A stretch of 64,000 nucleotides of DNA from Parcubacteria group bacterium Gr01-1014_8 (GTDB taxonomy: Bacteria > Patescibacteriota > Minisyncoccia > Phycocordibacterales > UBA2100), in the NCBI GenBank assembly GCA_007376385.1, contig VMGC01000001.1:192001-256000 (forward strand), given 5' to 3'. A program made the position numbers and the translations under genes. Of the stretch, positions 32,334 through 55,235 are shown piece by piece (within the stretch, counting starts at the first letter, position 1; each line of letters begins with the position of its first letter). The notes below the pieces were generated by a model. It was not told where the DNA came from. It was given only the letters and a program-made list of their open reading frames with translations, and searched no databases.

Positions 32334-32337
32334 TTCC

Positions 32338-34175: not shown

Positions 34176-34180
34176 AAGTT

Positions 34181-35089: not shown

Positions 35090-35092
35090 ACT

Positions 35093-36969: not shown

Positions 36970-37244
36970 AGTTTTATGTTCTTTTGGATTGCGACGGAGT
37001 TTTTGTGGATCCTAGAGAAGATCTCATTTGCGAGTTTTGTCGATATCTTCATCGCTTTCGCCATGGCGATCCGTGATTTTATGAGCTGCGTTTTTCGTGT
37101 CTTATCGAGCGCTCTCATTCCTTTCTCGAGCTTATATTTGCCTATCACTTTCGAGAGCTTAGCCCGCTTTGCGAGCGCAGAAAGGATAATGGTGTCCACG
37201 GTGTCTATCTCTTTTCTCAGGCTTTCCAGTTCTTTCTTCTGCAT
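36966..37244 (-). CDS. chorismate mutase (AroQ class)
   Basis: 92 aa; LRKEIDTVDTIILSALAKRAKLSKVIGKYK. Confidence 0.7.
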   Translation of the reverse strand: MQKKELESLRKEIDTVDTIILSALAKRAKLSKVIGKYKLEKGMRALDKTRKTQLIKSRIAMAKAMKISTKLANEIFSRIHKNSVAIQKNIKL

Positions 37245-37269
37245 AGTTCAGAATGTAGCGTATTTGGGG

Positions 37270-37560
37270 GCTTTTGTCGCGCCTACGTTGACAGAGGGAA
37301 GAAATGGGGTAGAGTCTGGTGAGTTAAAGCTGTTCAGGTCCCGTCCGCCAGTTGGCGGAGGGGGTTGGGCCTGGATTCCTTAAGTGGGAAAGTGGTCATT
37401 GCGTAAGTGGTGACTCGGACTCCTCCGTAATCAGGATAACTGATGTCCACCAGCTGGCGGAGTCAGCGAAAGTCCGCCTCTGGCGGAAAAGTAAGGTGGC
37501 ACCGTGTCGAGAGACGCCCTTACATCGTAACGAATAGTTGCGGCGTGAGGGCGTTTTTTA
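37270..37560 (+). promoter_or_regulatory. T-box-like riboswitch leader upstream of trpE
   Basis: AAGGTGGCACCGTG (37495-37508) matches T-box core AGGGUGGNACCGCG at 12/14 positions. It is followed by hairpin acgccct...agggcgtttttt; further upstream lie repeated helices ccgccagttggcgg / ccaccagctggcgg. Confidence 0.45.
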
Positions 37561-37702
37561 TTAGAAACTGTCCAAAAAAGTCCAATTGCGTCGTTGCGAG
37601 CTGTGGTACTCCCTCACAATACGTCATGTATTGTTCGGTTCGTTCCTCGCTCGCGCCTAGCATTCGGAGCTTTTTGAAACAGTTTCGGGGCATCAGAACA
37701 GC

Positions 37703-39049: not shown

Positions 39050-39642
39050 AAATACTTATCATAGATAATTACGATTCGTTCACCTACAACCTCTATCAAC
39101 TGGTGGGGGAAATTTTGAAAGCAGAACAAGGAGATTTCACTATTGATGTTGTGCGCAACGATGAGATAACCCTCGATGAAATACAAAGGCGCGCGTACGA
39201 CAGAATAATCATCTCCCCAGGGCCAGGTGACCCGAGTGACAAACACTATTTTGGTGTGTGTGCCGATGTCATCTTGCATGTTGGCAAAAAGACGCCAATT
39301 CTCGGTGTGTGCCTTGGAATGCAAGGAATTGCGCACTATTTTGGCGGGAAGGTTGTTCGCGCAAAAGTACCGATGCATGGCAAGACAAGTGAAATAGAGC
39401 ACGATGAAAAAGGTGTCTTTGCAGGACTTCCGCAGGGTCTCGAAGTCATGCGTTACCACTCGTTGGTGGCGGAAAAAGAATCACTGCCTAGTTCGCTTGT
39501 CGTCACATCAACGGCGAAAGATTCTGGTGAGATAATGGGACTTCGCCATGTGAAATATCCGATAGAAGGTATTCAATTCCATCCAGAGTCATTTGCAACA
39601 GAAGGAGGAAAAAGACTTCTGGAAAATTTCTTGAAGGTATGA
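39046..39642 (+). CDS. trpG: anthranilate synthase component II (GATase)
   Basis: 198 aa; ILGVCLGMQ, HPES motifs. Start overlaps trpE stop. Confidence 0.85.
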   Translation: MKILIIDNYDSFTYNLYQLVGEILKAEQGDFTIDVVRNDEITLDEIQRRAYDRIIISPGPGDPSDKHYFGVCADVILHVGKKTPILGVCLGMQGIAHYFGGKVVRAKVPMHGKTSEIEHDEKGVFAGLPQGLEVMRYHSLVAEKESLPSSLVVTSTAKDSGEIMGLRHVKYPIEGIQFHPESFATEGGKRLLENFLKV

Positions 39643-40649
39643 TACTGGACTTATTAAAGAAACTCGTTGAGAAAAAAGACCTGACTGTTTCGGAGTCGGA
39701 GCAATTCCTATTGGAAGTGATGAAAGGGGGAGTGAGCCCGACATGTATCGCAAGTATTCTCGTTGCACTGCGAATGAAAGGCGAGTCAGTTGATGAGATA
39801 GTCGGATTCCTCCGCGCGATGCGCGCGAACATGCTGAAAGTGAATGCGCCGGACGCGATTGATATCGTAGGAACCGGTGGGGACGGAAGCGGCACGTTCA
39901 ATATCTCGACTACCGCGGCTTTTGTGGTTGCAGGGGTGGGAGTAAAAGTGGCAAAGCACGGTAACCGTGCGGCAAGCAGCAAGTGCGGAAGCGCGGATGT
40001 TTTGGAAGCACTTGGCGTGAATATTCAGCTTACGAAGGAACAGGCGGAAGAAGTGTTTAAAAATGTCGGGCTCGTCTTTATGATGGCGCCTCTGTATCAC
40101 CCCGCGATGAAAGAGGTTGCCGCCGTCAGAGAAGAATTAAAGATACGAACTGTTTTTAATGTCCTAGGTCCATTCGCGAACCCTGCTTCGACGCAAACAC
40201 AATTAACTGGTGTTCCGAATAAGGCCATCGCAAAGAAATTGGCGGAGGTCGGCAAGCGGCTTGGCTACAAACGACTTCTCGTTGTCTCGAGCAATGATGG
40301 GATGGACGAGATAAGTTTGTCGTCAAAGACACATATGTTCGATGTCTATCGCGGCAAAGTAAAGAAATCGCTTATCGACCCGAAAAGATATGGATTCAAG
40401 CGCTCATCCAAGAAAGATATTCTTGGTGGGGATGCAACCGAGAACGCAGCTATTATCCGAGCGATTTTGAGTGGTGGAAGCGGGGCACAGCGTGACGTCG
40501 TTGTCTTTAACAGCGCGTTCGCGCTCTATGCTGCTGGCGCAGCCGCTTCAATTCAAGAGGGAATAGAGAAAGCTAAGCAGTCTATTGATAGCGGCAGCGC
40601 GCTTCGCGTATTAGAGTCATTGATACGGGAGACACAGAACTTCGCGTAA
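39639..40649 (+). CDS. trpD: anthranilate phosphoribosyltransferase
   Basis: 336 aa; IVGTGGDGSGTFNISTTAAFVVAGVGVKVAKHGNRA. Confidence 0.88.
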   Translation: MILDLLKKLVEKKDLTVSESEQFLLEVMKGGVSPTCIASILVALRMKGESVDEIVGFLRAMRANMLKVNAPDAIDIVGTGGDGSGTFNISTTAAFVVAGVGVKVAKHGNRAASSKCGSADVLEALGVNIQLTKEQAEEVFKNVGLVFMMAPLYHPAMKEVAAVREELKIRTVFNVLGPFANPASTQTQLTGVPNKAIAKKLAEVGKRLGYKRLLVVSSNDGMDEISLSSKTHMFDVYRGKVKKSLIDPKRYGFKRSSKKDILGGDATENAAIIRAILSGGSGAQRDVVVFNSAFALYAAGAAASIQEGIEKAKQSIDSGSALRVLESLIRETQNFA

Positions 40650-40656
40650 CTAACCT

Positions 40657-41937
40657 ATGATCAGTGTTCAACTACAGCCGCTAACTGGCCCCGCCAATAC
40701 GAGCGTCGATATACCCGGCTCTAAAAGCTATACAAACCGCGCACTCCTCATGGCGACGATGTGCCGTGAGGCTGTTCGGATCCTTAAACCGCTGGTGAGT
40801 GACGACACGAGGGCGATGCTCAACTGTTTAAAGACTCTTGGTATCAAGGTTGAGGAAAAGAGCGACGAGATAACGGTGATAGGGCATATAACGGACGTGA
40901 AGAATCAGGACTACGAACTTGATGCCGACCTCTCAGGCACAACGATTCGATTTATGCTCGCCCTTTCATGTGTTTTGCCCGGTGTTCAAACATTGGTTGG
41001 AAAAGAAGGTCTCAACAAGCGCCCTATCAAGGATCTCGTTGATGGTCTTAGACAGCTCGGTGCAAAGATAGAATACCTTGAAAAAGAAGGCTTTCCGCCT
41101 CTTCGAGTTTCTTCGTATGAATTGAATCCCGGGACTATCCGCCTGAAGGGAGGGGTAAGCAGTCAATTTTTGTCTGCCATTTTGATGATTGTTCCGCAGG
41201 TGGGGGATGTCACGCTCGAGGTCGAGGGTGAGCAAATATCAAAGCCCTACATAGACATGACAATAGATACTATGTCGCGCTTCGGTGTATCAGTTGCTAA
41301 TTTGAACTACCAGCGGTACCGCGTCTCGGTTGGACAGGTCTACCAAGGTACTGAATATACGGTCGAAGGGGACGTTTCGAGCGCTTCGTACTTCGCTGCG
41401 ATTGCCGCGCTCACGAAGTCTCGCATAACGCTCGCGAACATGAATCCGCAGTCCGTGCAGGCTGACATGCATTTTTTTCACATTCTTGAGGACATGGGCG
41501 CGTCTGTCAGCTATGAGAAAGACAGAATAGTCGTGGTGGGAAATGGCGTGATGCCAATGGAAGTAGATATGGAAAATTGTCCCGACCAGGCTCAAACAAT
41601 GGCGGTTCTCTCTGCGTTTGCTCCGGGCGTAACGAAACTTTCTGGGGTGCGCTCGCTTCGTCTGAAAGAGACAGAAAGGGTGAAAGCGCTTGAAGCGGAG
41701 CTTGCGAAGATGGGCATCAAGACCGAATCAACTGAAGATATGCTCACGATATACGGAGGTTCGCCAAAAGCCGCAGCAATAGACACCTACGGCGACCACA
41801 GGATGGCAATGTCTTTCGCGGTTGCGGGGGCAATGCTTGATGGCATGCAAATAAACGATTTCGGCGTTGTAGGAAAGACATTTCCTCAATTTTGGGAGAA
41901 ACTCGAATCAATTGGAGTCGGAGTAAAAAGGGTATGA
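40657..41937 (+). CDS. aroA: 3-phosphoshikimate 1-carboxyvinyltransferase (EPSP synthase)
   Basis: 426 aa; PGSKSYTNRALL, LRLKETERV, GDHRMAMSFAVAG. Confidence 0.88.
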   Translation: MISVQLQPLTGPANTSVDIPGSKSYTNRALLMATMCREAVRILKPLVSDDTRAMLNCLKTLGIKVEEKSDEITVIGHITDVKNQDYELDADLSGTTIRFMLALSCVLPGVQTLVGKEGLNKRPIKDLVDGLRQLGAKIEYLEKEGFPPLRVSSYELNPGTIRLKGGVSSQFLSAILMIVPQVGDVTLEVEGEQISKPYIDMTIDTMSRFGVSVANLNYQRYRVSVGQVYQGTEYTVEGDVSSASYFAAIAALTKSRITLANMNPQSVQADMHFFHILEDMGASVSYEKDRIVVVGNGVMPMEVDMENCPDQAQTMAVLSAFAPGVTKLSGVRSLRLKETERVKALEAELAKMGIKTESTEDMLTIYGGSPKAAAIDTYGDHRMAMSFAVAGAMLDGMQINDFGVVGKTFPQFWEKLESIGVGVKRV

Positions 41938-42458
41938 ATATCGTACTCATCGGAATGCGCGGGAGCGGTAAATCGACTGTTGCAAAAATGCTTGCGAAGA
42001 AGCTTGGCCGGAAATATATGGAATTGGACGACGAGATAGCCAAAAAAGCCGGCGCGCGCATCTCTGAAGTCGTGGAGCAGCAGGGTTGGAATTATTTCCG
42101 CGTGAGAGAAGCGGAGGTAGTCGAAGAAGCTGCTGCAGTAGACAATACGGTCATCTCCACCGGGGGTGGTGTTGTCTTGCAGAGTAAAAACGTTCAAGCA
42201 TTGAAGAAAAACGGTATCTGTATCTTTTTAAGCGCGCCAATCGAGGAACTGCTTCCACGCATTGGTGAATCGTCTACCAGACCGCGGCTTACAGGTGCAA
42301 AGACGATGAAAGAGGAATTGGAGAAAGTATGGGAAGAGCGCAAGCCGTTGTACGAAAAAGCAGCGGACGAGACTATTGATACTACAGGCATGAAACCGAA
42401 AGATATTGCCGAGGAAATAGTGCAGAGACTTAAAAAGAAGCATATAGTGCAAATCTGA
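41934..42458 (+). CDS. aroK: shikimate kinase
   Basis: MNIVLIGMRGSGKSTVAKMLA Walker A motif. Internal start chosen to overlap aroA stop (ATGA). Confidence 0.8.
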   Translation: MNIVLIGMRGSGKSTVAKMLAKKLGRKYMELDDEIAKKAGARISEVVEQQGWNYFRVREAEVVEEAAAVDNTVISTGGGVVLQSKNVQALKKNGICIFLSAPIEELLPRIGESSTRPRLTGAKTMKEELEKVWEERKPLYEKAADETIDTTGMKPKDIAEEIVQRLKKKHIVQI

Positions 42459-42459
42459 T

Positions 42460-43542
42460 ATGGCAGGAAATTCATTCGGACAACTTTTTAGAATAACGAC
42501 ATTTGGTGAATCGCACGGCGGGGCTGTTGGGGTTGTACTGGATGGATGTCCGCCGGGGATTCAAATAACCGAAGAAGAAATCCAAATTCAGCTCGACCGT
42601 CGGAAGCCGGGGCAAAGTCATATCACGACGTCTCGCAAAGAGGCAGATAAAATAAAGATACTTTCTGGCTACTATGAGGGAAAAACGACTGGGACACCGA
42701 TACTTCTTATCGCATACAACGAAGATGCTAAGTCGGGGGATTACAAGGAACTGATGAAAGCGTACCGCCCGTCGCATGCAGATTACACGTACGAAGCAAA
42801 ATACGGCTTCCGCGATTGGCGTGGAAGCGGCCGCGCTTCGGCGCGCGAGACGCTTGCGCGCGTAGCAGCCGCGGCGATTGCACAGAAATATCTACAAGAA
42901 AAAGAGGGAATTGAGTGCCTGAGTTTCGTTGAACAAGTCGGCGACATCAAGGCGGATGTTGATGTTGAGAAAGTGCAGATGAAAGACATAGAATCCAACA
43001 TCATTCGATGTCCCGACCAGAAAGTGGCGGAGAAGATGATCGCGCTTGTTGAGAAAACGAAAGCAGAGGGTGATTCCATCGGCGGTATCATTCAGGGTGT
43101 TATTCGTGGCGTGCCAGCGGGCCTAGGCGAGCCGGTATTCGATAAAATTCCTGCTGACCTTGCGAAAGCAATGTTAAGCATCAATGCAGTCAAGGGATTC
43201 GAAATGGGGCTTGGGTTTCGAAGCGTCGGCATGAAAGGAAGTCAGCACAACGACCCGATGGAAATCCGTGATGGGAAAATTCGGACGAAAAAGAATGACG
43301 CCGGAGGCACATATGGTGGCATTTCAAGCGGCGAAACGATTCATTTCCGCGTTGCGTTCAAACCTGTCTCAACTATTGCAAAAGAGCAGGACACTGTCAC
43401 AACTGAAAAGAAGGCAACAAAACTTGCAGCCGCCGGTCGCCACGACCCGTGCGTCCTCCCCCGCGCCGTCCCCATCGTCGACGCCATGTCCGCGCTCGTC
43501 ATCATGGATCACTATCTTCGCAACAAGGCGCAAAATAAGTAG
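42460..43542 (+). CDS. aroC: chorismate synthase
   Basis: 360 aa; FGESHG, GRSSARET-like (GRASARETLARV), GRHDPCV. Confidence 0.88.
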   Translation: MAGNSFGQLFRITTFGESHGGAVGVVLDGCPPGIQITEEEIQIQLDRRKPGQSHITTSRKEADKIKILSGYYEGKTTGTPILLIAYNEDAKSGDYKELMKAYRPSHADYTYEAKYGFRDWRGSGRASARETLARVAAAAIAQKYLQEKEGIECLSFVEQVGDIKADVDVEKVQMKDIESNIIRCPDQKVAEKMIALVEKTKAEGDSIGGIIQGVIRGVPAGLGEPVFDKIPADLAKAMLSINAVKGFEMGLGFRSVGMKGSQHNDPMEIRDGKIRTKKNDAGGTYGGISSGETIHFRVAFKPVSTIAKEQDTVTTEKKATKLAAAGRHDPCVLPRAVPIVDAMSALVIMDHYLRNKAQNK

Positions 43543-43554
43543 TACAATTTCCGA

Positions 43555-44058
43555 ATGAGCATGGAAGGCGGACCAAAACCTAGGAAAGGAATTCTTTCTG
43601 GTTTACAGAGATGGCTTGAACAACGAAAAGAACGAATAACGCTTGAAGAGGTAAGAGATCACTTGAGCTTTAATCTGTGGAAAACAGCCGATGCGGTGTG
43701 CACAGAAATCTTGGAAAATCGATTAGCGCAAGGCCGCACAGCTCCTAAATACACGAAGCTTAATCTCGATCGATCAAATTACTCTGAGTGGCAGTCGTAT
43801 TTTGATATGCGTTCGAGAACATCGAACTTTTGCATCCGCTTGTTTTCGATGAGGGAAGCGGATGTTAAGCAAGAAAATGAACTTACAGATCAGGAAAGGC
43901 AATGGGCTCGAACAGGTCCATCAGATGACGATCGCAGAAAGACTTATTTTGCTAATACTGGACATCATATCCCGTATTTTCGGCTTGTTCGAGGAGGTAG
44001 TCGACGTCGTGTTGAACAAAGTGAAGGAGATTCGTCGCCGATTACGGTTAAATCTTAA
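43555..44058 (+). CDS. hypothetical protein
   Basis: 167 aa ORF at the end of the trp/aro operon, charged; no motif. Confidence 0.4.
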   Translation: MSMEGGPKPRKGILSGLQRWLEQRKERITLEEVRDHLSFNLWKTADAVCTEILENRLAQGRTAPKYTKLNLDRSNYSEWQSYFDMRSRTSNFCIRLFSMREADVKQENELTDQERQWARTGPSDDDRRKTYFANTGHHIPYFRLVRGGSRRRVEQSEGDSSPITVKS

Positions 44059-44064
44059 TTTGAT

Positions 44065-44889
44065 CTATAATTTCAGTTGAGACATCGTTTTTTCCACCGC
44101 GGAAATCTTCTTGTTCTTCTTTAGGGCGACAACAAACACACTTCCTGCGATCACAATATCCGCTACTTTGGACAAATCTTTTACATCCTTTTTTGACTTA
44201 ACACCGAATCCAACGGCCACGGGAAGTTCAGAAGTGCTTCGCAGTGTTTTTATAAATGCGGGCAAATCGGACGCAAACACACTTGTTGCTCCGGTGATTC
44301 CTTGTCGCGTTGTGCAGTACCAGAACCCCGTTGCGTCTTTTGCGAGCGTTTCAAGGCGTTCCTTTGGAACGCCGGGGGATACAACAGGAATTAATGCAAT
44401 ACCAGCTGCCTTGCACGTCGCAAGCAGAGACCAGCCTTCCATCGTGTCGAACGGACAATCTGGAACAATTAATCCGACCGCCCCAGCGTTGGAGATGGTC
44501 TTGATGAATTTTGGGATGCCCATCCGGTAAATAGGGTTGGCGTAAGTCATCACAACGACCGGCTTCTTGAATTTCGCAACCTTTTTTACGACTTCTAGAG
44601 CTTTTTTGACTGTCGCGCCTTTCTTGAGCGCCTCTTCGCACGCGACCGCAATTGTTGGGCCATCAGCCATTGGGTCGGAGAAGGGGATTTGCACTTCGAT
44701 AATATCTGCTCCACCTTTGGCGAGTGCCTTTGCGACCTGGATGGATTCAGAAATCGTCGGAAGCCCCGCGATCATGTGCGCCATGAAAAGAGATTTTTTC
44801 CCTCTGTTTTCCAATAAAACCATCAAGGCGACGCCTTGATGGTTTTTCTCAATGGAAGTTGTCATTCTAGTCATAGCGGTTGTATTCAT
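44065..44889 (-). CDS. trpA: tryptophan synthase alpha chain
   Basis: Motifs PFSDPMADGPTI, CTTRQGITGA. Start may be the internal MVLLEN... at ~44823. Confidence 0.85.
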   Translation of the reverse strand: MNTTAMTRMTTSIEKNHQGVALMVLLENRGKKSLFMAHMIAGLPTISESIQVAKALAKGGADIIEVQIPFSDPMADGPTIAVACEEALKKGATVKKALEVVKKVAKFKKPVVVMTYANPIYRMGIPKFIKTISNAGAVGLIVPDCPFDTMEGWSLLATCKAAGIALIPVVSPGVPKERLETLAKDATGFWYCTTRQGITGATSVFASDLPAFIKTLRSTSELPVAVGFGVKSKKDVKDLSKVADIVIAGSVFVVALKKNKKISAVEKTMSQLKL

Positions 44890-46078
44890 CTTTGAGGAAG
44901 TCTCTGAAGCTTTTGTCTTTGAAGGCGCGGGCGAAGTTGAAAAGGTCTTTGTCGCCGCGGCCGGAGAGTGTAGCGACGATGATGTGATCCTTTTTCATTT
45001 TTGGGGCGATTTTTATCACATGTGCAAGTGCGTGCGCGCTCTCGAGCGCGGAAATTACTCCTTCGAGTTTCGCGAAGAAATCTACCGCCGCAACCGCTTC
45101 TGTATCCAGCGCATACGTAAGTTCCAAGCGCCCTTCTTGGTAGAGGTCTGCGAGTTCGGGACCAAGTCCTGGGTAATCGAGTCCGGCGGAAATAGAATGC
45201 GTGGGCGCAATTTGACCGTCGTCCGTCTGCAGAAAGAGAGATTTGTATCCCTGAAATATCCCCAACACTCCTGCTATTTTTCGGGATGCATGCTGTCCAA
45301 CCTTTTTTCCAATTCCTCCCGCCTCCACTCCTATCAATCGCACTGAAGATTCAGGCACAAAGTCATAAAAACTGCCGATGGCGTTTGAGCCTCCGCCGAC
45401 GCAGGCAACGACTACATCCGGGAGCTTGCCTTCGCGCTCCTGTAGTTCAGAACGAATTTCTCGTCCAATGATGGATTGGAAGTATCGGTTCATTTCGGGA
45501 TATGGTTTTGGGCCAAGCACGGAGCCGATGCAGTAATGCGCTTTCTCAAGATTTTCCATCCAGAATTTTAGCGCCTCGTTCACCGCGTCTTTCAGAGTCT
45601 TGCTTCCGTATTCAACGGGAATTACTTTCGCACCGAGTCGTTCCATCAAGAATACATTTGGTCTCTGGCGGCGTATGTCTTCGTTTCCCATGAATACTAC
45701 ACACTCAAGTCCTAGTTTTGCCGCTACCGTTGCTGTTGCGACGCCGTGTTGTCCTGCGCCAGTTTCTGCGATGAGCATCTTTTTGCCCAGTTTTTTCGCC
45801 AGGAGCCCTTGTCCGAGGCAGTGCGTTATCTTATGAGCACCAGTATGGTTTGCGCCCTCGTTCTTCAGATATATCTTCGCGCCGCCAAGTTTCTTCGTTG
45901 CCCGCTCTGCAAAAATGAGGGGAGTAGGACGGCCAGAAAAATTCTTTAAGAGGTCTCTGAATTCCTTTTGGAACTCGGGGTCTCTTTTTGCTTTCTCAAA
46001 TGCGGCGATAAGCTGCTGCAGGGTCTCCCATAGCATTTCGGGTATATATGCTCCGCCGAATGTCTCACGCTCTGTCAT
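44867..46078 (-). CDS. trpB: tryptophan synthase beta chain
   Basis: 403 aa; LKNEGANHTGAHKITHCLGQ (PLP Lys), GGGSNAIG. Confidence 0.9.
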   Translation of the reverse strand: MTERETFGGAYIPEMLWETLQQLIAAFEKAKRDPEFQKEFRDLLKNFSGRPTPLIFAERATKKLGGAKIYLKNEGANHTGAHKITHCLGQGLLAKKLGKKMLIAETGAGQHGVATATVAAKLGLECVVFMGNEDIRRQRPNVFLMERLGAKVIPVEYGSKTLKDAVNEALKFWMENLEKAHYCIGSVLGPKPYPEMNRYFQSIIGREIRSELQEREGKLPDVVVACVGGGSNAIGSFYDFVPESSVRLIGVEAGGIGKKVGQHASRKIAGVLGIFQGYKSLFLQTDDGQIAPTHSISAGLDYPGLGPELADLYQEGRLELTYALDTEAVAAVDFFAKLEGVISALESAHALAHVIKIAPKMKKDHIIVATLSGRGDKDLFNFARAFKDKSFRDFLKDEYNRYD

Positions 46079-46863
46079 ATCATTGCTTTCTGAAGTTCTC
46101 GTATCTTCTCGAGGGGGTCATTAGACTCCAGAATCGCAGTTCCAACAAGGATTCCTCGGACGCCGGTTTTGCGAACACGAAGCACATCATCAGCCGTGTA
46201 AATTCCTGATTCACTCACGACGGGTATGTCTTTGGGGATGGAGTTCATCAGCGTTTCTGTTGTGCTGAGGTCTATTTCCATAGTTCGGAGGTTGCGGTTG
46301 TTGATGCCGATGAGTTTTGCATTCGCTTCTATCGCCTTTTTCACATCTTCTTCGTCGTGCACTTCAACGAGACTTCCGATGCCAAGCGATTCTCCAAGGG
46401 ATATGAGTTCAGCGAGCTTGTCTTTCTCAAGCACCGCTGCGATGAGAAGAAACGCATCGCCACCCCCGGCAAGTGTTTCGTAGACCTGGTATTCATCAAC
46501 GATAAAATCTTTTCTTAGAATTGCTTGCGGAACTTTTTCTCGCACGTGCTGCAACAATTCAAGACTCCCGCCGAAATATTTGTTGTCAGTAAGAACGGAA
46601 ATCGCGTCCGCTGCACTTTCGGCGTACAGTTCTGCAACTTTGAGCGGGGAATCGATGAGTTTACCGGCGGAAGGAGAGCGCGGCTTTATCTCTGCAATGA
46701 GAACGCTTGATCCGGGGTCGCTAAATCGCGAGCGAAATGGTCTCGCTTTTCGGTATTGTTTTTGCTCCGATATACGTGCTCGCAAGACCTCAAGCGGCAC
46801 TTTCTTCATCCTCTCTTCCAGTTCGGAGCGGGTATTAGATACTATTTCATCGAGTACTGTCAT
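46075..46863 (-). CDS. trpC: indole-3-glycerol phosphate synthase
   Basis: 262 aa; LIAEIKPRSPSAG, GINNRNL. Overlaps trpB start. Confidence 0.85.
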   Translation of the reverse strand: MTVLDEIVSNTRSELEERMKKVPLEVLRARISEQKQYRKARPFRSRFSDPGSSVLIAEIKPRSPSAGKLIDSPLKVAELYAESAADAISVLTDNKYFGGSLELLQHVREKVPQAILRKDFIVDEYQVYETLAGGGDAFLLIAAVLEKDKLAELISLGESLGIGSLVEVHDEEDVKKAIEANAKLIGINNRNLRTMEIDLSTTETLMNSIPKDIPVVSESGIYTADDVLRVRKTGVRGILVGTAILESNDPLEKIRELQKAMI

Positions 46864-46935
46864 GCTCGGCTATTATAGTGATTATCACGAATTTACCTAG
46901 CGTTTTAGCCCTTTGCAGTCTACGATGGAGCATTC

Positions 46936-47574
46936 ATGGTTAAGGTGAAGATCTGCGGCAATACGAGCAAGGAAACTGCGCTTGCCGCGCTTTCGTATGG
47001 TGCAGATATGCTTGGATTCATTGTGAATGTTTCTGGATCAAAGACTTCCATAACGCCAGAGCAGGCGCGTGAAATTATTTCTGCGCTGCCGTCTGGCGAG
47101 ACTGTGGTGGTTACAACTGCAACAGATGCTCAGGAAATAAAAAGACTTGCACAGGAAACTGGCGTTTCAACAATTCAATACCATGGTGAAGTGTCACCGG
47201 AGACAATTGCAAAGATAAAAGATGAGCTACCGAATATCGCCGCGTGGAAAGTAATCCATGTGAAAGATGAGAGTGCGATTGATGAAGCAAGGAAATATGA
47301 AAGTATCGTAGACGCGATACTTTTGGACACAGCACAGGGCGGCCAAATCGGCGGAACTGGTACTACGCATGACTGGAATATTAGCCGCATAATTGCAGGT
47401 GATTATTCCAAACCGATCATCTTGGCCGGGGGACTGAATCCAGACAATGTGGAGGAAGCAATACGGGTCGTGAAGCCCTATGCGGTAGACGTGAACTCCG
47501 GTGTTACTAACTCGGATGGCTCAAAGGACCTTGAAAAAGTGAAGCTTTTCATAGAACGTGCAAAGGGCAAATGA
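46936..47574 (+). CDS. trpF: phosphoribosylanthranilate isomerase
   Basis: 212 aa; MVKVKICGNT...GFIV, LAGGLNPDNV. Confidence 0.8.
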   Translation: MVKVKICGNTSKETALAALSYGADMLGFIVNVSGSKTSITPEQAREIISALPSGETVVVTTATDAQEIKRLAQETGVSTIQYHGEVSPETIAKIKDELPNIAAWKVIHVKDESAIDEARKYESIVDAILLDTAQGGQIGGTGTTHDWNISRIIAGDYSKPIILAGGLNPDNVEEAIRVVKPYAVDVNSGVTNSDGSKDLEKVKLFIERAKGK

Positions 47575-47592
47575 GGCCTTAAAATCGTCGCT

Positions 47593-47620
47593 TGACAGGG
47601 GTCGCAAGTCGACTATACTG
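47593..47620 (+). promoter_or_regulatory. sigma70-like promoter TTGACA-N16-TATACT
   Basis: cTTGACAggggtcgcaagtcgacTATACTg. Followed immediately by hairpin plus T7 (47627-47650) and a second hairpin gaccctcctgtgaggagggac. Confidence 0.35.
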
Positions 47621-47626
47621 TCCTGA

Positions 47627-47671
47627 ACTACCGACCTCGGTGGTTTTTTTGACCCTCCTGTGAGGAGGGAC
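47627..47671 (+). terminator. tandem hairpins after trpF (ctaccgacctcggtggttttttt; gaccctcctgtgaggagggac)
   Basis: First has T7 tail. The second is a perfect 6-bp stem. Confidence 0.5.
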
Positions 47672-48340
47672 AGAAGGCTTGAACTTTGACAACTGAATAT
47701 GAAAAATTGTACGCAAAACCAAAAAAGAAATTGGTAAGTAAAATTGTTGCCGGCGCTCGCTCGGAATTGAAAATTTATTTTCATTTCGCTCGCTCGCATG
47801 GGCAATAAGAATTCTTGTTGTTCTCAAGTTAGGAACAATAAGACACACACAAAAGCAAGAAAACAGAAAATACATATTGAGGTTCCAGGAGGATCTCATG
47901 TGTAAGTAAACAGTAATAACGAGACAAAAGATCCCCCAAGGGGACTGCGACTTTCTACGATTCAAATGAATCGTGAAAGTCGGGAGATATACATTCTTTT
48001 GTTTCGTCCATCCTAGAGATATTGAAGCAATTCAAATTCTTGAAAGTGGTGTAAAAACCATTTTTACTTAGAGTTTGATCCTAGCTCAGGGTGAATGCTG
48101 GCGGTATGGATAAGGCATGCAAGTCGAATGGGTTAGACCCATGGCAGACGAGGTAGTAACAGGTAGGTACGTCCCCGGAAGTCGGGCATAACCAGCCGAA
48201 AGGTTGGATAATTCCCGATGGTCTCGCAAGAGTAAAGATTTATCGCTTCCGGAGCGGCCTGCTTTGTATCAGCTTGTTGGTGAGGTAACGGCTCACCAAG
48301 GCTATGACGCATAGGGGACCTGAGAGGGTGACCCCCACCG

Positions 48341-48377
<37 letters not shown>

Positions 48378-48891
48378 TGCAGCCGAGAATATTCGACAAT
48401 GGGCGAAAGCCTGATCGAGCGATACCGCGTGGTGGATGAAGCGCTTCGGCGCGTAAACACCTTTTATGAGGGAAGAAATTTTGACGGTACCTCATGAATA
48501 AGGGGCTCCTAACTCTGTGCCAGCAGGAGCGGTAATACAGAGGCCCCAAGCATTACCCGGAATTACTGGGCGTAAAGGGTGCGTAGGTGGTCATATTAGT
48601 CGCCTGTTAAAACCCACGGCTCAACTGTGGAACCGCGGGCGAAACGGTATGACTAGAGAGAGTGAGAGGTGAATGGAACTCATGGTGTAGGGGTGAAATC
48701 CGTTGATATCATGGGGAACACCGAAAGCGAAGGCAATTCACTGGCACTTTTCTGACACTCAAGCACGAAAGCGTGGGTAGCGAACGGGATTAGATACCCC
48801 GGTAGTCCACGCCCTAAACGATGATCGCTGGATTTGGGGAGTATCGACCCTCTCCGAGTCGAAGCTAACGCGTTAAGCGATCCGCCTGGGT

Positions 48892-48923
<32 letters not shown>

Positions 48924-49386
48924 AGACGGGGGCTTGCACAAGTGGTGGAGCGTGTGGCTCAATTCGTCGCTAAGCGAAGAACCTTACCAGGGCTAGAAAT
49001 CCAGCTGCATACTTTGGGAAACCTTAGTAGCCTTCGAGGGTGCTGGACAGGTGATGCATGGCTGTCGTCAGTTCGTGGTTTGAATCGTTCCCTTCAGTGG
49101 GGTAACGAACGCAACCCTCGTTGCCTGTTATATTTGTCAGGCGAGACTGCCCCCTCACGGGGGAGGAAGGTGAGGATGACGCCAAGTCAGCATGTCCCTC
49201 TGATGTCCTGGGCTGCACACGCGCTACAATCGCCGTTACAACGAGGCGCAACGTCGTAAGACCGAGCAAATCTTTCAAAAGCGGCGCCAGTTCGGATTGA
49301 GGTCTGCAACCCGACCTCATGAAGCCGGAATCACTAGTAATCGCGGGTCAGCCACACCGCGGTGAATACGTTCTCAAGCCTTGTAC

Positions 49387-50231
49387 TCACAATAAAAGCG
49401 CACAGCAGTGTACATATCTATGCGGTTAAAATCCGCACCTCTCTTTCGTACAGAGAGCGTAGCAGAAGGATAGTTGTTATCCGCGAGGATGATAATGGAG
49501 GATCCTAATGCAAAGAGCAGCCATTTCGCACAAAAGCCGACCGACCTGTCAATGGGTGGTGAGGATAGGGAAGGTCCTAGAAAGGCAAGAAAATGGATGC
49601 CTAGAACAGATACGCACATAACCTGTGGAGATCTGACGCTGTTATCCCAAAGATGGGATATGATGAATCTGACGCAGCGTCAGAAGTCAGCTGAGTCATA
49701 GTATTTGCAGATATGCAAAAAAGGACTCACTCAAAGCAAAATCTTAGTCCAGATTATGTTGTTGGACTCGTAGATGGTGAAGGAAGCTTTACTGTCTACG
49801 TAAGAAATCCAGACATAGAGAAAAAAGTCGCTCGAAGAGTGGTTGTAGAGCCAAAATTCTACATAAAACTAATCGAACGCGACAAAGATATTCTCTATGC
49901 ACTTCGAGATTTCTTCGGATGTGGAAGTATTTACTTCCAAAAAGATAATCGTCCGAATCATCAACATTGCTATCGTTACGAGGTCTTCCGGTGGGAAGAA
50001 CTTCAAACGATAATCATTCCGTTCTTCAAGCGGCACGTTCTCAAATTCGCGTCAAAACGGCACGACTTTGAAGTGTTTTGCATGATGATGGAGCTTCTCA
50101 AAAAAGAAGCACATCGAACGGAAAAAGGACTACGAGAGTTGTTTAAGTTGAAACAACGCATGCATTGAGCTCGCGTAGTGCGGGAAATCCGCTCGCTACG
50201 TGGGAACATCAATTCTTAGATTCAAGAAGAT
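49387..50231 (+). mobile_element. intron-like insertion in 16S (after CTTGTAC, ~E. coli 1392) carrying a LAGLIDADG gene
   Basis: Interrupts the universally conserved TTGTACACACCGCCCGTC. Contains ORF 49713..50168. Confidence 0.65.
49713..50168 (+). CDS. LAGLIDADG homing endonuclease (intron-encoded)
   Basis: 151 aa; YVVGLVDGEGSFTVYV motif. Similar architecture to the 12820..13320 protein. Confidence 0.85.
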   Translation: MQKRTHSKQNLSPDYVVGLVDGEGSFTVYVRNPDIEKKVARRVVVEPKFYIKLIERDKDILYALRDFFGCGSIYFQKDNRPNHQHCYRYEVFRWEELQTIIIPFFKRHVLKFASKRHDFEVFCMMMELLKKEAHRTEKGLRELFKLKQRMH

Positions 50232-50480
50232 AATCGCCCGTCAACTCAGGGAAGCCGGGAGTGTCCGAAGCACATACTCGTTATGTACCAAGGCAAACTC
50301 GGTGACAAAGAGTAAGTCGTAACAAGGCACGGCTAGCGGAAGCTGGTCGTGGATTCATTCAAAATTGATTTCGATTTTCAGGTTCGCCTGATAATCGGAG
50401 CAGTCGATTTCTGTATCTCGATCGAGTACAGAAGAAGGTATGACATTGATCCTCAAACATGTCGGACAACTTGGAAAGAC

Positions 50481-50600
50481 AAGTGGATAATGGACGGAAC
50501 AAAAGAGTGTGTATATAGATCAGGTTATAGGTTACAGCTTGTAGCTTGTAGGAAATGCGAACAAACAAAAACGCCGACTCGATATGAGCACGGCGTTTTT
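50481..50600. repeat. hairpin-ended intergenic repeat, copy 1
   Basis: aatggacggaacaaaagagtgt ... caaaaacgccgactcgatatgagcacggcgttttt; shares both ends with copy 3. Confidence 0.75.
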
Positions 50601-50620
50601 GCGTGTGCTAGATTAATGCC

Positions 50621-50968
50621 ATGGGAGGCGTACCATTTGGAGTTTTTACACTGTGGGGGGTGCTCATGCTCCTTGTTGTGATTTTTCTTGAAAAGTTTGG
50701 GGAAATGTCTCCAATCGTCGCTTTTTTCGTGGTTCCTGTTTTAACTGTAATTATTGCGTTTCGAGTTGCAAAAATACTCGAAAGTATTATTCCTGAAAAT
50801 GTACCTCGCTATGAGAATGTATTGATGCGGCGTTGGTATGGAAGCCGTCTCGATGATTTTTTAATGTATATTGTTGGTGGACCGGTAAATTTTGCTCTGA
50901 TACTAGGGACCGCGATAGTTCTCGGTGTTTTTCTATTGATATATTTCACAACCGGGTCATTCTTTTAA
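50621..50968 (+). CDS. small membrane protein (3 TM)
   Basis: 115 aa, strongly hydrophobic helices. Confidence 0.5.
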   Translation: MGGVPFGVFTLWGVLMLLVVIFLEKFGEMSPIVAFFVVPVLTVIIAFRVAKILESIIPENVPRYENVLMRRWYGSRLDDFLMYIVGGPVNFALILGTAIVLGVFLLIYFTTGSFF

Positions 50969-50984
50969 CTCGGCAGGGAAAAGA

Positions 50985-51070
50985 GTGTGTATGAAGAATA
51001 GCTGGTAGCTTGTAGCCAGCAGCTTGCAGCAAATACAAAACGCCCGAAAGGGTGGTTTTGTGTTGCAGCG
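50985..51070. repeat. hairpin-ended intergenic repeat, copy 2 (degenerate)
   Basis: aaaagagtgtgtat ... gtagcttgtag ... caaaacgcccgaaagggtggttttg; same modules as copy 1. Confidence 0.55.
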
Positions 51071-51113
51071 TTCACATGAGAGAAGTTGAAACCACTCCCG
51101 CTCTTGATACATC

Positions 51114-52778
51114 GTGATATGCTTTTTGTATATGACTGACGGGTTGAAAGAATGGAAGAAGCCGGAAGTAACAGACATTTCTTCTGAAGAGCCAGTAAAG
51201 GAGAAAGCGGAGCTGACAGAAGAATTAAAAGATCATATCAGGCAAGACTTGGAATTGGATACGTACGACACACCAGAGAAAGCGAAAAAACGCCGTACGC
51301 AATTGGCAATATTTTATGGTACGAACGTGCAGCAGATTGGGGCAGTTTCTGCGTATAAAAAGCGCGATGGTAAATTAAGCTTAGAGGCAAAATTTGAAAA
51401 ACTACCTCCCGCTCCACCGAAAATCGAAACAGAGTATGACAATTTTACAAAGCGTGCATGGCGGCAGAAAATCTTCAATGCTATAAAGAACGATTTTACT
51501 CAAGAGCAGCTGCAACGTGCTCGAGTCCTATGTTTTCCCGGACAAGCTTTACAAGAGGTGACCGAAGTTTATTTGCCACTAGGTATTCGACCAGAAAATA
51601 TTGTGTGTATTGAGAAGGATCCAGATGTTGTGAAAACCATGAGAAAAAACCTCAAGGCACTCATCCAAACGAAGGTGCTGAGCCAATCTGTCTCCATTTT
51701 CGAAGGAAGTGTCGAGGAATTTTTACAGAGCTCACATGAGCCCGTAACCATCGCTTCATTCGATCTTTTGGGGCCTATGTACGAGGGATTTTTGATGAGT
51801 ATTCCCAATCTCCGTGTCGCGGATAAATTCATGGTTATTACGAATTGTTTGCAGCGCAGGGAACAGAAAAATCAGCAAGATGCATTGAAGTCAATGACGT
51901 CAGCAACGCGTGCGGTAGGGAGCGCACTCGATGCGCTCCAGAATTATAAGCACATTCTCCCGGGTGTTGGCAGCACATCTTTCGACGTGAGTCACCTCAT
52001 GGCTCAAATTGCAAGGGCAAATCAACAACCGATAGACCTTTCAGAAGCGCGAGATGAAGGTGCGGCTATCACGATGATAGCTTTTCTCTTAGGAGGTCAA
52101 GCCAAACAGTCACTCGATGATCTCTACTCTGAAGCTAGCATCGTTCCACCGCGGTTCAAGTCAGATGACGACCGACAAGCTTTTGAAGATCACACGCTCG
52201 GAACACTGATACGTGGGATTGAACAATTAGTTATAAACTATTCTAGAGTGTATTCGCGATTGTCGCTGAAATCCGACGTAAACATATTGGAAAACACCCT
52301 TAGTAGAAGCGATACCGGAAAACATGGATTTTTATTGCACTTTCTCACCGTGGCGACGCATTGCATGAGCGATCTTACGATTTGCGATTTACAACGGTAT
52401 GAATATTCAAGCGAGAAATCCGGGTCTCCATATCAGACGGATGTGATCACGTTGTTTGATTGGAAGCGGAATTTCCGCGAGAAGCATCGGGAAGCATATC
52501 ATTTCATCCGAGATTGTTTTCGAGTGATCGGTCAACACTCGGTAGATCAGATTTCCTTCCAGTTTAAAAAAGGCATCACGGTTTTACCGAAAAACTATGC
52601 TGGCAGCAACGCAAAGATAGATTTAACGGTGAACGTAAACGGCAAGCAGTTTCTCAGTATATCGTTCAGCAAACTCCTTGAGCTAGTGGCTTACTTTAGG
52701 AAAACGGAGAAAATCGTTACAAAAGGAAAAATACCACAGGACTTTTTGGAACGGCCGCGAATCAAGATAGAAACATAG
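51114..52778 (+). CDS. hypothetical protein (possible Rossmann-fold SAM-methyltransferase-like core)
   Basis: 554 aa. Pattern ARVLCFPGQA (motif I-like) ... IVCIEKD (acidic end of beta2) ... IASFDLLGPM (motif IV-like) is suggestive only. Confidence 0.3.
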   Translation: MICFLYMTDGLKEWKKPEVTDISSEEPVKEKAELTEELKDHIRQDLELDTYDTPEKAKKRRTQLAIFYGTNVQQIGAVSAYKKRDGKLSLEAKFEKLPPAPPKIETEYDNFTKRAWRQKIFNAIKNDFTQEQLQRARVLCFPGQALQEVTEVYLPLGIRPENIVCIEKDPDVVKTMRKNLKALIQTKVLSQSVSIFEGSVEEFLQSSHEPVTIASFDLLGPMYEGFLMSIPNLRVADKFMVITNCLQRREQKNQQDALKSMTSATRAVGSALDALQNYKHILPGVGSTSFDVSHLMAQIARANQQPIDLSEARDEGAAITMIAFLLGGQAKQSLDDLYSEASIVPPRFKSDDDRQAFEDHTLGTLIRGIEQLVINYSRVYSRLSLKSDVNILENTLSRSDTGKHGFLLHFLTVATHCMSDLTICDLQRYEYSSEKSGSPYQTDVITLFDWKRNFREKHREAYHFIRDCFRVIGQHSVDQISFQFKKGITVLPKNYAGSNAKIDLTVNVNGKQFLSISFSKLLELVAYFRKTEKIVTKGKIPQDFLERPRIKIET

Positions 52779-52805
52779 TAAAGATATGTGTGACCTTAGG
52801 AAAGG

Positions 52806-52938
52806 CGGGGGAATGGACGGAACAAAAGAGTGTCCCGACGCGCGAGAGCGGTCGGGATCCCGACCGAAGCGTCGGGATGTATTGAAGAAAATGCTACAAC
52901 CAAAAACGCCGACTCAACATGAGCACGGCGTTTTTTTG
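52806..52938. repeat. hairpin-ended intergenic repeat, copy 3
   Basis: aatggacggaacaaaagagtgt, then two tandem hairpins with identical stems (tcccgac...gtcggga twice), then caaaaacgccgactcaacatgagcacggcgttttttt. Confidence 0.75.
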
Positions 52939-53657
52939 ATTTGGATTTGATATTCCTCCCGGCGGCAATGCAGGCACTGCCGCCAGGAAGACTTTCCCTC
53001 ACTGGGTTGGTCGTTTCTCAAAAGCCGTTGGCTTGGCTACGGTTTTTCGTGCCCACTGGCGTGACCGCCGGTTGGCTCCGTTGCTGGGCTTGCGCCCGCG
53101 CCTCTTCTTTCGAGTACTTGTCCTGTGCCCCATTCGGCACTCCCTATGTTCGAGTAAGCATTTGCAAAGAGCGGATTCCCTCTGCCACGTCGAACGTAGC
53201 ACGTATGTAGGTGCTTTGTCACGCTTTACTAAAGTAGAGTGGTGTATACGAACATAAAAAACACCGAGACAATTCTTAGGCACAGCAGCGCTTGAATGAA
53301 CGTGTCCCAACTAAGCACCGCCGACCCGGGAGGGTCGGCGGTGCTGGTTGTTGCCAGAGAGTGGGTATCCAGCGCGAGGGCTACTTACGTCCGTGCTTCT
53401 GTTTCTTCTTCCTCTTGCCGGCATTCTTCCCGCAACGAGGATTCCAATTGGAAGCCTGACGTGCTTTCGCCTCCGAATGGTTGTGACCGCGATGGCCCAT
53501 TTTCGTACCTCTCAACGTGGCATCATTGCCGCGGCTAAAGTAGCACATGAGCCATGGTTTTGCTACCATCGCGGGTACAAGCGCGTTTAGCTCCGGCGGA
53601 TGATACAGACACATCGGTCGCAGCGAGGCGCGGTTTGGAGTAGATTGGTTTGATAAC

Positions 53658-53729
53658 GCGCGTTTAGCTCAGTGGTAGAGCATCCCTCTGATAAGGGGAA
53701 GGCCGTAGGTTCAATCCCTACAACGCGCA
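53658..53729 (+). tRNA. tRNA-Ile (anticodon GAT)
   Basis: Cloverleaf folded by hand: acceptor GCGCGTT/AACGCGC, D arm GCTC-AGTGGTA-GAGC, anticodon stem TCCCT/GGGGA with loop CTGATAA, T arm GTAGG-TTCAATC-CCTAC. No encoded CCA. Confidence 0.8.
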
Positions 53730-53933
53730 CAAAAGACAGAAACACCTGCCGCAACGGCCAGGTTTTCTGCTTTTGTGGGAGCCGGAGCGATGTTGCGCGA
53801 GTACGCGCAACCGCGAGGCCGGGTCGGGAAAATTTGTTTGGGACGACAAACAAATTATTCCTGACCACAAGTCCATGTGTGACCACACTTCGACTCAAGA
53901 CGCACTCAGTGTACACTGAGTGCGACAATATCT

Positions 53934-55235
53934 ATGAACTATCACGTCATCGGCGGGAAAAAACTCTCTGGTTCTGTGCGGACCAATACTTCAAAGAACG
54001 CTGCAGTCGTACTGCTTGCGGCATCACTTTTGAATCGCGGAACTACAACGCTGAAGAGGATGCCGAAGATAGAGGAAGTGAACCGACTTATCGAGGTCAT
54101 GAAAAGTATCGGCGTGAAAATAGAGTGGACCGACAAGGAAATGACCATAATGCCTCCGAAAGAATTCGACCTGAAGAATGTAGACAAAGTCGCTGCGCAA
54201 AAAACCCGAAGCATAGCGCTTTTTATCGCCCCCCTTGCTCACGTGATGGATTCTTTTGACCTCCCCGCGCCAGCCGGATGCGATTTGGGCAAAAGAAGTC
54301 TCGGTGCGCACATTGACGCACTGGAGCGTCTCGGTATTTACATCAGCGGGGATGAAAAAAAGAATTCATATCACACTGAAGTTAAAGATAAGCAGCTGGC
54401 AGAAATAATCATGTATGAGGCGAGCGACACAGGCACAGAAAATGTGTTGATGGCTGCTGCTAAAATTCCCGGCAAGACGGTCATTAAATTCGCGAGTGCA
54501 AATTACATGGTTCAGGATCTATGTTTCTTTCTGGAAAAATGCGGTGTCAAAATTGAGGGCATCGGTACTTCAACGTTGGTTGTTCACGGAGTGAAAGACA
54601 TTGGTCTCGATGTTGTTGATGCGCCAAGCGAGGACCCGATTGAATCAATGTTTTTCATCTCCCTCGCCGCAACAACCGATTCGGAACTGACTATTGAAAG
54701 ATGCTCCATTGATTTTCTTGAGCTGGAGCTGCTTACTCTCGAACATATGGGCTTGAAATACAAAGTGGGAAAAAAATATCTGGCCGAAAATGGGCGCACG
54801 ACCTTATGCGATATCAAGATAAATAAATCAGAATTGCATGCACCGCCGGAGAAAATAGCTCCGCGTCCATATCCCGGCATCAACATCGATAACCTTCCGT
54901 ATTTCGTTTCTATTGCGACGCAAGCAAAAGGGGAGACGCTTATCCATGACTGGGTCTACGAGATACGCTCGTCCTACTATCTGGAAATGGCAAAGCTCGG
55001 CGCAGATGTAAAAAAACTAGACCAGCATCGCGTGTTAGTCAAAGGTCCCACGCCGTTACATGGCACAAATATCAAAGCGCCGCCTGCGTTTCGTCCTGCA
55101 TCTATCCTCCTCATCGGCATGCTCGCGGCCGAAGGCGAATCAACACTTTATGATGTGTATCCGATAAACCGCGGATATGAGAATTTGCACGAGCGATTGA
55201 AGTCGCTCGGTGCAAACATTGAAGCGATTGATTAA
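53934..55235 (+). CDS. murA: UDP-N-acetylglucosamine 1-carboxyvinyltransferase
   Basis: 433 aa; EPSP-synthase fold with MurA-type N-terminus (IGGKKLSGSVRTNTSKNAAVVLLAASLL). Confidence 0.85.
   Translation: MNYHVIGGKKLSGSVRTNTSKNAAVVLLAASLLNRGTTTLKRMPKIEEVNRLIEVMKSIGVKIEWTDKEMTIMPPKEFDLKNVDKVAAQKTRSIALFIAPLAHVMDSFDLPAPAGCDLGKRSLGAHIDALERLGIYISGDEKKNSYHTEVKDKQLAEIIMYEASDTGTENVLMAAAKIPGKTVIKFASANYMVQDLCFFLEKCGVKIEGIGTSTLVVHGVKDIGLDVVDAPSEDPIESMFFISLAATTDSELTIERCSIDFLELELLTLEHMGLKYKVGKKYLAENGRTTLCDIKINKSELHAPPEKIAPRPYPGINIDNLPYFVSIATQAKGETLIHDWVYEIRSSYYLEMAKLGADVKKLDQHRVLVKGPTPLHGTNIKAPPAFRPASILLIGMLAAEGESTLYDVYPINRGYENLHERLKSLGANIEAID

Follow-up and report, generated by a model that had tools for sequence, protein, structure and literature searches.

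Gene cassettes bordered by copies of what is very probably the distal 16S rRNA trailer in Parcubacteria

A two-gene block behind the 16S rRNA gene

The DNA analysed here is a stretch of 64,000 nucleotides (nt) from Parcubacteria group bacterium Gr01-1014_8 (assembly GCA_007376385.1, contig VMGC01000001.1, positions 192,001 to 256,000 of the forward strand), referred to below as the window. Immediately downstream of its 16S rRNA gene lies a block of two protein genes (50481-52938), which an earlier note, made from the sequence alone, had described as a cassette-like unit bracketed and subdivided by three copies of a hairpin-ended repeat. We find that the repeat is very probably the distal part of the 16S trailer, that is, one strand of the helix from which 16S rRNA is processed together with a putative terminator, and that accessory gene cassettes bounded by copies of it recur in many related Parcubacteria, an arrangement that we did not find described.

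The 16S rRNA gene (48063-50364) reads on the plus strand, as do the elements between 47987 and 55235 given by coordinates in this section and the next, except where the minus strand is named. It is interrupted, with Rfam small-subunit matches at 48063-49422 and 50300-50364, and it is unlinked, lying 32 kb from the 23S and 5S genes. On the far side of the block are a tRNA-Ile(GAT) gene (53658-53730) and, at 53934-55235, a gene which we take to be murA from a reading of its translation, without a family search. Given the positions of these three genes, the two-gene block sits in the former 16S-23S spacer. The locus was compared with related loci, defined as metagenome contigs that match the 19-mer GGACGGAACAAAAGAGTGT; more than 120 contigs are among the matches listed, and since about a third of them come from one metagenome project and only listed matches were used, the locus frequencies given below are not prevalences.

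The left module of the repeat contains a 22-mer (AATGGACGGAACAAAAGAGTGT) found exactly at 50489-50510 in copy 1 and at 52812-52833 in copy 3 (0.00 matches expected from dinucleotide shuffles), while the right module, a 35-nt terminator hairpin pattern, is found at 50566-50600 and 52901-52935, with two loop positions as the sole difference. The two shared modules described in the earlier note are thus present. In copy 1 the left module extends over 50489-50514, the centre (50515-50565) carries periodic TAG triplets, and the hairpin reads AAAAACGCCGAC...CACGGCGTTTTT. The hairpins of both copies have the stem AAAAACGCCG/CGGCGTTTTT followed by 5-7 T, i.e. the G+C-rich hairpin and T run of a predicted intrinsic terminator. 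The centre of copy 3 (52833-52877) holds two tandem hairpins with identical stems, pairing TCCCGAC (52833-52839) with GTCGGGA (52851-52857) and TCCCGAC (52858-52864) with GTCGGGA (52871-52877), just as the note had read them. Copy 2 (50979-51063), the degenerate copy of the note, exists, though only in part: its first 61 nt (50979-51039) match 50501-50561 at 72% identity, and copies 1 and 2 share an exact 14-mer (AAAAGAGTGTGTAT; 50501-50514 and 50979-50992) at a repeat spacing of 478 nt, but its hairpin (51041-51054, with a T-rich tail) differs from that of copies 1 and 3 and is weaker, being terminator-like in its 5-bp stem followed by GTTTTGTGTT. The region 50326-53694 is 100% identical to the independently assembled contig L142, which makes it unlikely that the arrangement arose through faulty assembly.

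The first cassette encodes a hydrophobic orphan protein of 115 amino acids (aa; 50621-50968), whose three hydrophobic segments agree with the three-transmembrane protein seen in the note; it has no Pfam or PHROG match, and its sole database match is an identical sequence at the same locus. The second (51132-52778) encodes a protein of 548 aa counted from an ATG, or 554 aa from a GTG at 51114; its residues from about 135 to 250 resemble the core of class I methyltransferases.

At a typical junction a TGnTAnnnT box follows the terminator. In the window, a putative extended -10 box (TGcTAGATT, 50606-50614) ends 6 nt before the ATG at 50621 of the membrane-protein gene, and another (TGaTATGCT, 51115-51123), conserved in the related loci L008 and L009, lies 8 nt before the ATG at 51132. 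These assignments draw on the statistics of box positions: the ATG stands 6 nt after the end of a TAnnnT box in 9 of the 55 open reading frames (ORFs) of the window and in 63 of 348 ORFs of the relatives, versus about 5 at other offsets, which is about 12 times the background. The 3' end of the 16S rRNA gene (50340-50364) reads ...GGATTCATTC, with no CCUCC anti-Shine-Dalgarno sequence. Together, the box offsets and the missing CCUCC suggest that this clade mostly uses leaderless mRNAs, and we infer from these sequence features that each junction may act as an insulator composed of a terminator and a promoter.

The left module and the pre-16S processing helix

The interpretation of the repeat changed with the finding that the minus strand nearly matches the left module at 47991-48012, some 50 nt before the start of the 16S gene. 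The leader segment 47987-48011 (ATATACATTCTTTTGTTTCGTCCAT) pairs with 50490-50514 at 25 of 25 positions, G-U pairs allowed, and belongs to the longest inverted repeat within 47500-53700. From this complementarity, the left module is the 3' strand, and the leader segment the 5' strand, of a leader-trailer helix that encloses the 16S rRNA. Both flanks are available for 11 related loci, and the helix is present in every one of them, with 93.1% of cells paired versus 37-55% in shifted registers; 17 of its 25 pairs are invariant, and four show compensatory changes, all at the helix edges. The reverse complement of the module also stands about 50 nt before 16S in L072 and L088. The earlier note had been right about a cassette-like unit, but it had missed the minus-strand match and had not recognised the left module as a strand of the 16S processing helix.

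The other parts of copy 1 are likewise found in the trailers of relatives. A hairpin with a GAAAGA loop (acttg-gaaaga-caagt, 50469-50484) precedes the left module, and its stem covaries, reading cgcgg/ccgcg in L008 and cctcg/cgagg in L009; an AAAG-loop hairpin precedes the first module copy in 97 of 121 related loci. The terminator hairpin of copy 1 is of a type also seen behind single-copy 16S trailers, occurring after 25 of 70 single-copy modules and 16 of 47 first-copy modules in the listed loci. We are highly confident that the repeat is the distal 16S trailer, made up of the processing-helix strand and a presumed terminator. As to its centre, TAG recurs every 7-8 nt at 50530-50555 and 51003-51030 of the window, and similar TAG-periodic tracts follow the module in many 16S trailers of relatives.

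In bacteria, for example in E. coli and B. subtilis, the flanks of pre-16S rRNA form a long leader-trailer stem that is cut by RNase III, and by analogy the leader:module helix would be an RNase III substrate too. As in those bacteria, both 16S flanks form here a long conserved helix with covarying edges, and an intrinsic terminator would stand behind the helix because 16S is a separate transcription unit in this lineage. Unlike in the known processing helix, two to nine or more copies of the 3' strand follow 16S, with protein genes between them. Our literature search found no description of trailer or processing-helix-strand copies that bound gene cassettes, and we know of no report of a duplicated processing-helix strand bounding genes.

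The copies differ in how well they would pair with the leader. In the window the predicted duplex of copy 3 is the more stable (-61.3 versus -40.7 kcal/mol for copy 1), and the TCCCGAC of copy 3 is also complementary to leader positions 47977-47983; in locus L068, unlike the window, it is the copy nearest 16S that pairs best.

Three further features of the rRNA flanks were noticed. Two hairpins lie in the 16S leader just before the helix strand (47931-47986). In L036, L049, L053, L065 and L133 an element of about 55 nt that resembles a reverse complement (ctcccgatttgt...acaaatcgcagtccccttgggggat) follows right after the module, and this suggests a longer processing helix in part of the lineages. 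Finally, a repeat of about 95 nt (91-92% identical) occurs at 15997-16090, in the 23S-5S spacer, and 13.9 kb downstream at 29878-29970; its TTTATTTTCATTTCG motif is also found in the 16S leader (from 47774), and the repeat may represent another duplicated rRNA flank or, alternatively, a promoter or processing element that these sites share.

Related loci and the turnover of cassettes

In most of the more than 120 contigs listed, the 19-mer stands about 110-170 nt after the 3' end of 16S, on the same strand. A conserved order of 16S, module, variable stretch (0.4 to more than 10 kb), tRNA-Ile(GAT) and murA is found in 38 loci. The tRNA gene, which marks the conserved far edge of the variable region, lies between 16S and murA in 38 of the 38 related loci that hold both module and murA. 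The distance from module to murA ranges from 559 nt, effectively an empty site, to 11.5 kb, so that the murA homologue, conserved beyond the variable region, begins 0.56-11.5 kb after the 16S trailer. ORFs lie on both strands of the spacers, and 626 of them fall into 381 clusters; the families met in the variable stretch include DUF2975, 3-dmu-9_3-mt, AbiTii, TIR, GNAT, YafQ, PemK and Fic, beside many ORFs without a family. Throughout the clade, the spacer between 16S and tRNA-Ile is a hot spot for unrelated accessory genes.

An 11-mer pattern of the module, [CG]AAAAGAGTG[TC], gives 180 matches on the plus (16S-sense) strand and none on the minus strand in 628 kb. Two or more same-strand module copies are present in 38 of the 122 listed loci, and they delimit 58 inter-module intervals, or cassettes, with a median length of 694 nt (interquartile range 569-1024 nt). 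Later copies read (A/T)TGGACGGAACAAAAGAGTGT(A/G)TA(A/T), usually followed by a simple terminator, and a common split variant, seen in many of the relatives' loci, consists of TGGACGGAAC, a hairpin of 14-45 nt, and CAAAAGAGTGT. In the window, copy 2 corresponds to the right half of a module of this split kind (ggcaggGAAAAGAGTGTGTAT), continued by a TAG-periodic centre and the weaker hairpin; it shares about 90% identity with the element next to 16S in L008. Locus L068 has seven to nine boundaries, depending on the pattern used. The cassettes carry, among others, GNAT acetyltransferases, a PemK toxin, Fic/DOC, a HepT-like protein, a DDE transposase, a hydrolase and many orphans, and their ORFs are of mixed orientation (about 22 plus and 13 minus by our count). 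The last codons of the GNAT ORF (...FGTEQKSV*) are supplied by the module itself in the cassettes of L023, L133 and L137; the proteins of L023 and L133 have clearly diverged despite this kept, module-encoded end.

Turnover of the cassettes is seen when the window is set beside its closest relatives. Locus L008, whose 549-aa gene product is 79% identical to the second protein of the window, reads 16S, module, a copy-2-like centre, and then the gene, with flanks about 90% identical; what it lacks is exactly one cassette, the 478-nt segment at 50515-50992 (plus strand), which is flanked in the window by the 14-nt direct repeat AAAAGAGTGTGTAT. Locus L009 (protein 73% identical) has two other cassettes before the same gene, and its small membrane protein is unrelated to that of the window. 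In addition, a cassette of 1560 nt, encoding a 307-aa DUF1402-like protein and a 160-aa protein, is tandemly duplicated in L125 (1354-2914) and L136 (1851-3411), its copies being 96% identical. These differences, together with the 38 loci with module-bounded cassettes, bear out the recombination-prone unit proposed in the earlier note.

The hot spot also bears on the role of the 554-aa protein, which the note had thought might be an rRNA-modifying enzyme because of its place next to 16S. The methyltransferase-like core that the note proposed is supported by the predicted structure, as an RsmD-like class I S-adenosylmethionine-dependent methyltransferase core. Unlike the N2-guanine RNA methyltransferases of the RsmD (YhhF)/Trm1 type, with which only about 150 of the 554 residues align, the protein has an invariant FD(L/F)LGP as motif IV, not DPPF or NPPY, and a motif I without GxGxG; the catalytic motif is absent both as (D/N)PP(F/Y) and in the broader form (D/N/S)PP(F/Y/W). 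Its large N- and C-terminal parts have no structural match, and the whole protein has no sequence match in Pfam, PHROGs, NCBIfam or PDB, its one hit being a weak match to mad2 of PADLOC (E 0.0066). None of its just 13 close homologues has a Pfam domain, nor do 10 of the 10 checked among 587 distant relatives which a profile search retrieved and which share the N-terminal half. At seven readable loci of more distant homologues 16S was not detected, and these homologues, as well as two known from gene tables, sit among similar small accessory genes. Given that 16S was not detected at the loci read, and given the spacer hot spot, the position of the gene reflects the hot spot and not a functional link to rRNA, and the suggested rRNA-modifying role is not supported. 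For annotation, the two window genes are best treated as hot-spot cargo and not as partners of the rRNA gene. In L001-L003 a distant homologue (P0005) lies about 20 nt from an opposite-strand tRNA gene, among DUF1801 and OmdA genes, and this locus may be a second variable region associated with an RNA gene.

Several other features surround the locus. A sigma-70-like promoter (TTGACA-16 nt-TATACT, 47592-47619, plus strand) matches 11 of 12 consensus positions, is the best site in 47500-54000 and is probably the 16S promoter. The interruption of the 16S gene is an insertion of about 845 nt (about 49391-50234), uninterrupted relatives joining window position ~49390 to ~50235; it carries a LAGLIDADG ORF (49713-50168; Pfam LAGLIDADG_1, E 5.5e-15) and a weak Rfam match to group-II-D1D4-1 (49639-49726), and relatives have insertions at several other 16S positions. 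The 23S gene (10579-15938) is also long, 5360 nt versus 2925 nt for the model, with a group I intron at 13363-13607 and a 166-aa ORF at 12820-13320. Before the tRNA-Ile gene lies a GC-rich (55%) non-coding stretch (52940-53657, plus strand) whose predicted RNA fold has a z-score of -5.4; only its last ~120 nt are conserved in relatives, and the stretch has no Rfam family match, no credible ORF and no homologue. The region 30717-47574 encodes tryptophan and shikimate enzymes (chorismate synthase, EPSP synthase, IGPS, TrpA, PRAI and others), which seemed to us much biosynthesis for Parcubacteria.

Origin of the module copies and known systems

The explanation that we favour, by a modest degree, is the following. 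The left module is very probably the 3' helix strand, pairing with leader 47987-48011 in a helix that RNase III would cut, and the right module would be an intrinsic terminator, directly followed by an extended -10 promoter from which a leaderless mRNA would start. Each inserted unit would be a small autonomous transcription unit, consisting of promoter, gene, a further module copy and terminator, and the window holds two such inserts, one for the 115-aa membrane protein and one for the 548/554-aa protein with a methyltransferase fold. The module copies would arise and turn over by homology-driven recombination: as rRNA processing needs the module it is conserved, and it would so supply a short shared sequence beside the long 16S homology, where DNA exchange between relatives, deletion and tandem duplication are all possible. 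Seen in the data are the identity of the module, the conserved gene order, the cassette structure, the presence/absence difference and one tandem duplication, while RNase III cleavage and the terminator and promoter activities are deduced. The recombination step is the most conjectural part of this scheme, and that it is driven by homology rather than being site-specific is for us an evenly balanced judgement.

In favour of homology, the duplicated stretch can be as short as 14 nt or reach at least 195 nt, and later copies decay, 25 of 46 having 1-5 mismatches where the first copy is exact. Moreover, no recombinase is among the Pfam families listed for ORFs of the cassettes (30), the spacers (116) and the window (54), with the listings for the spacer and window sets comprising the top 25 families, so that a recombinase may have been missed. 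Among viral contigs the 19-mer has no match, and a 15-mer has 75 matches, none of which extends to the full module, so there is no sign of a phage attachment site.

Besides that possible omission, several observations weigh against a purely homology-driven origin. Of 45 later copies, 30 share with the 16S trailer only the module of about 20-25 nt, with a sharp start at (A/T)TGGACGG that looks like the edge of a defined site, and a homology of 25 nt is close to the lower limit for RecA-type recombination. In many loci the split modules retain both TGGACGGAAC and CAAAAGAGTGT, one on either side of a variable hairpin, suggesting that the copies as such are under selection. The 16S-type terminator follows 16 of 47 first copies versus 2 of 47 last copies, a bias that a simple crossover inside the module does not predict, and many spacer genes have no recognisable module boundary. 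Neither homology nor an integron-like model accounts for how a gene first gains its 3' module. A scheme in which the farthest copy is the native trailer and new cassettes enter beside 16S was dropped: the pairing in the window speaks for it, whereas L068 and the distribution of terminators speak against it.

The strongest competitor is an integron-like site-specific system, with module and hairpin as the cassette attachment site, the 16S trailer as the primary site and a recombinase, encoded elsewhere in the genome, that would integrate cassettes and release them as circles; we regard it as rather unlikely. The median cassette length and the cargo of toxins, GNAT and Fic proteins and orphans resemble integron cassettes as generally known, and all 180 copies stand in direct orientation. 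The sharp left edge of most later copies, the split modules, which can be read as two conserved half-sites around a variable hairpin, and the module kept as the last codons of the GNAT ORFs in spite of the divergence between L023 and L133 point the same way, and the 16S-type terminator remains with the first copy, which would fit cassettes that bring their own 3' site. However, no recombinase is found in the families listed for cassettes, spacers and the 64-kb window, the sequence read by eye is not an imperfect palindrome and lacks inverted RYYYAAC/GTTRRRY core sites, the ORFs face both ways, the duplicated length is not constant, many later copies are decayed, and many spacer genes stand without a module. 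As a canonical attC site the repeat was rejected, since in the three copies and their predicted folds neither the left end ACGGAAC nor the right end after the hairpin fits the core sites, and the two ends are not complementary; no dif/Xer-like or inverted-repeat core was seen by eye within the module. Helix strand and hairpin might instead be the attachment site of a dedicated, non-integron cassette-capture system whose array is anchored to an RNA precursor. In that case a recombinase would insert and excise small self-expressed genes beside 16S, and the module copies might link cassette transcripts with rRNA synthesis by base-pairing to the excised leader; we hold this to be unlikely.

Two other readings of the copies have less in their favour than those above. 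The extra copies could be kept for a function in RNA processing or transcription, either by pairing with the 16S leader or its excised fragment, whereby read-through or cassette transcripts would be processed by RNase III, or as insulating terminators beside a very highly transcribed gene. The stabler predicted duplex of copy 3 with the leader (-61.3 versus -40.7 kcal/mol) and the junctions that typically combine terminator and promoter are in line with this, and a hairpin inserted in one helix strand need not abolish the pairing of both module halves. Yet about a third of the cassette ORFs lie on the opposite strand, so that the module is not in sense in their transcripts; later copies decay; in L068 it is the nearest copy and not a later one that pairs best; and such a function alone does not explain presence/absence differences and tandem duplication, for which reasons we judge it quite improbable. 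The alternative considered in the earlier note, ordinary dispersed gene-end terminator repeats specific to this genome (similar to repetitive extragenic palindromic sequences or miniature inverted-repeat transposable elements), three of which would lie here by chance, fits the terminator-like hairpin with which each copy ends after a gene. It is nevertheless highly improbable, because within the 64 kb the module occurs only at this locus, with its complement in the 16S leader, and because in relatives it is confined to the 16S-sense strand (180 versus 0) and in most loci stands behind the 3' end of a detected 16S. The module is also conserved where 16S differs by about 8-15% from that of the window, and hence is not genome-specific. 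A scan of contigs with the pattern AAAAGAGTGTGYAT..CAAAA..GCC, which mismatches the window's own copies, returned chance matches and an unrelated inverted-repeat element in one metagenome-assembled genome.

If the pattern described here holds, the most conserved locus of the genome is at the same time a common port of entry for accessory genes across a large group of ultra-small bacteria, and a sequence fixed for ribosome biogenesis is reused as the border of exchangeable gene units. The order 16S, module, cassettes, tRNA-Ile, murA would be a searchable signature for gene flow in Parcubacteria, and the variable spacer could help to explain broken assemblies and the difficulty of binning 16S genes in this group. 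The locus would also be a natural system for studying how gene cassettes acquire flanking sites; to our knowledge, the origin of the flanking sites of integron cassettes is still an open question.

Compared with known systems, the loci resemble integron arrays in their small, mostly single-gene cassettes at a fixed chromosomal position, with toxin, acetyltransferase and orphan cargo, and resemble integron cassettes in a 3' hairpin element of about 60-130 nt with conserved ends and a variable centre. Unlike integrons, they have no attC core sites and no IntI among the listed families, the cassettes have their own putative -10 boxes and mixed orientation, and the repeated site is part of an rRNA precursor. 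Genomic islands at the 3' ends of tRNA and tmRNA genes include integrase-less, cis-mobilisable remnants in tandem arrays, and there as here direct repeats that copy the conserved end of an RNA locus bound successive segments. In contrast to those islands, the repeat of Parcubacteria lies in the precursor trailer, outside the mature RNA, the units are ten to a hundred times smaller, and no integrase is found in or beside the arrays among the listed families. The closest parallel, the hypervariable region 2 (HVR2) of SAR11, is a variable region inside a split rRNA operon for which the flanking rRNA genes were proposed as recombination sites; it is one 48-kb island of cell-surface genes, with an integrase gene reported and no attC sites (PMC2217521). 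The present loci are like HVR2 in being a hypervariable gene region inside a split rRNA operon, with the gene order kept in the 38 loci, and they differ from it, for which no internal repeats were described, in extending over 0.4 to more than 10 kb and in being built of small units with a single gene each, many of which are individually enclosed by trailer copies.

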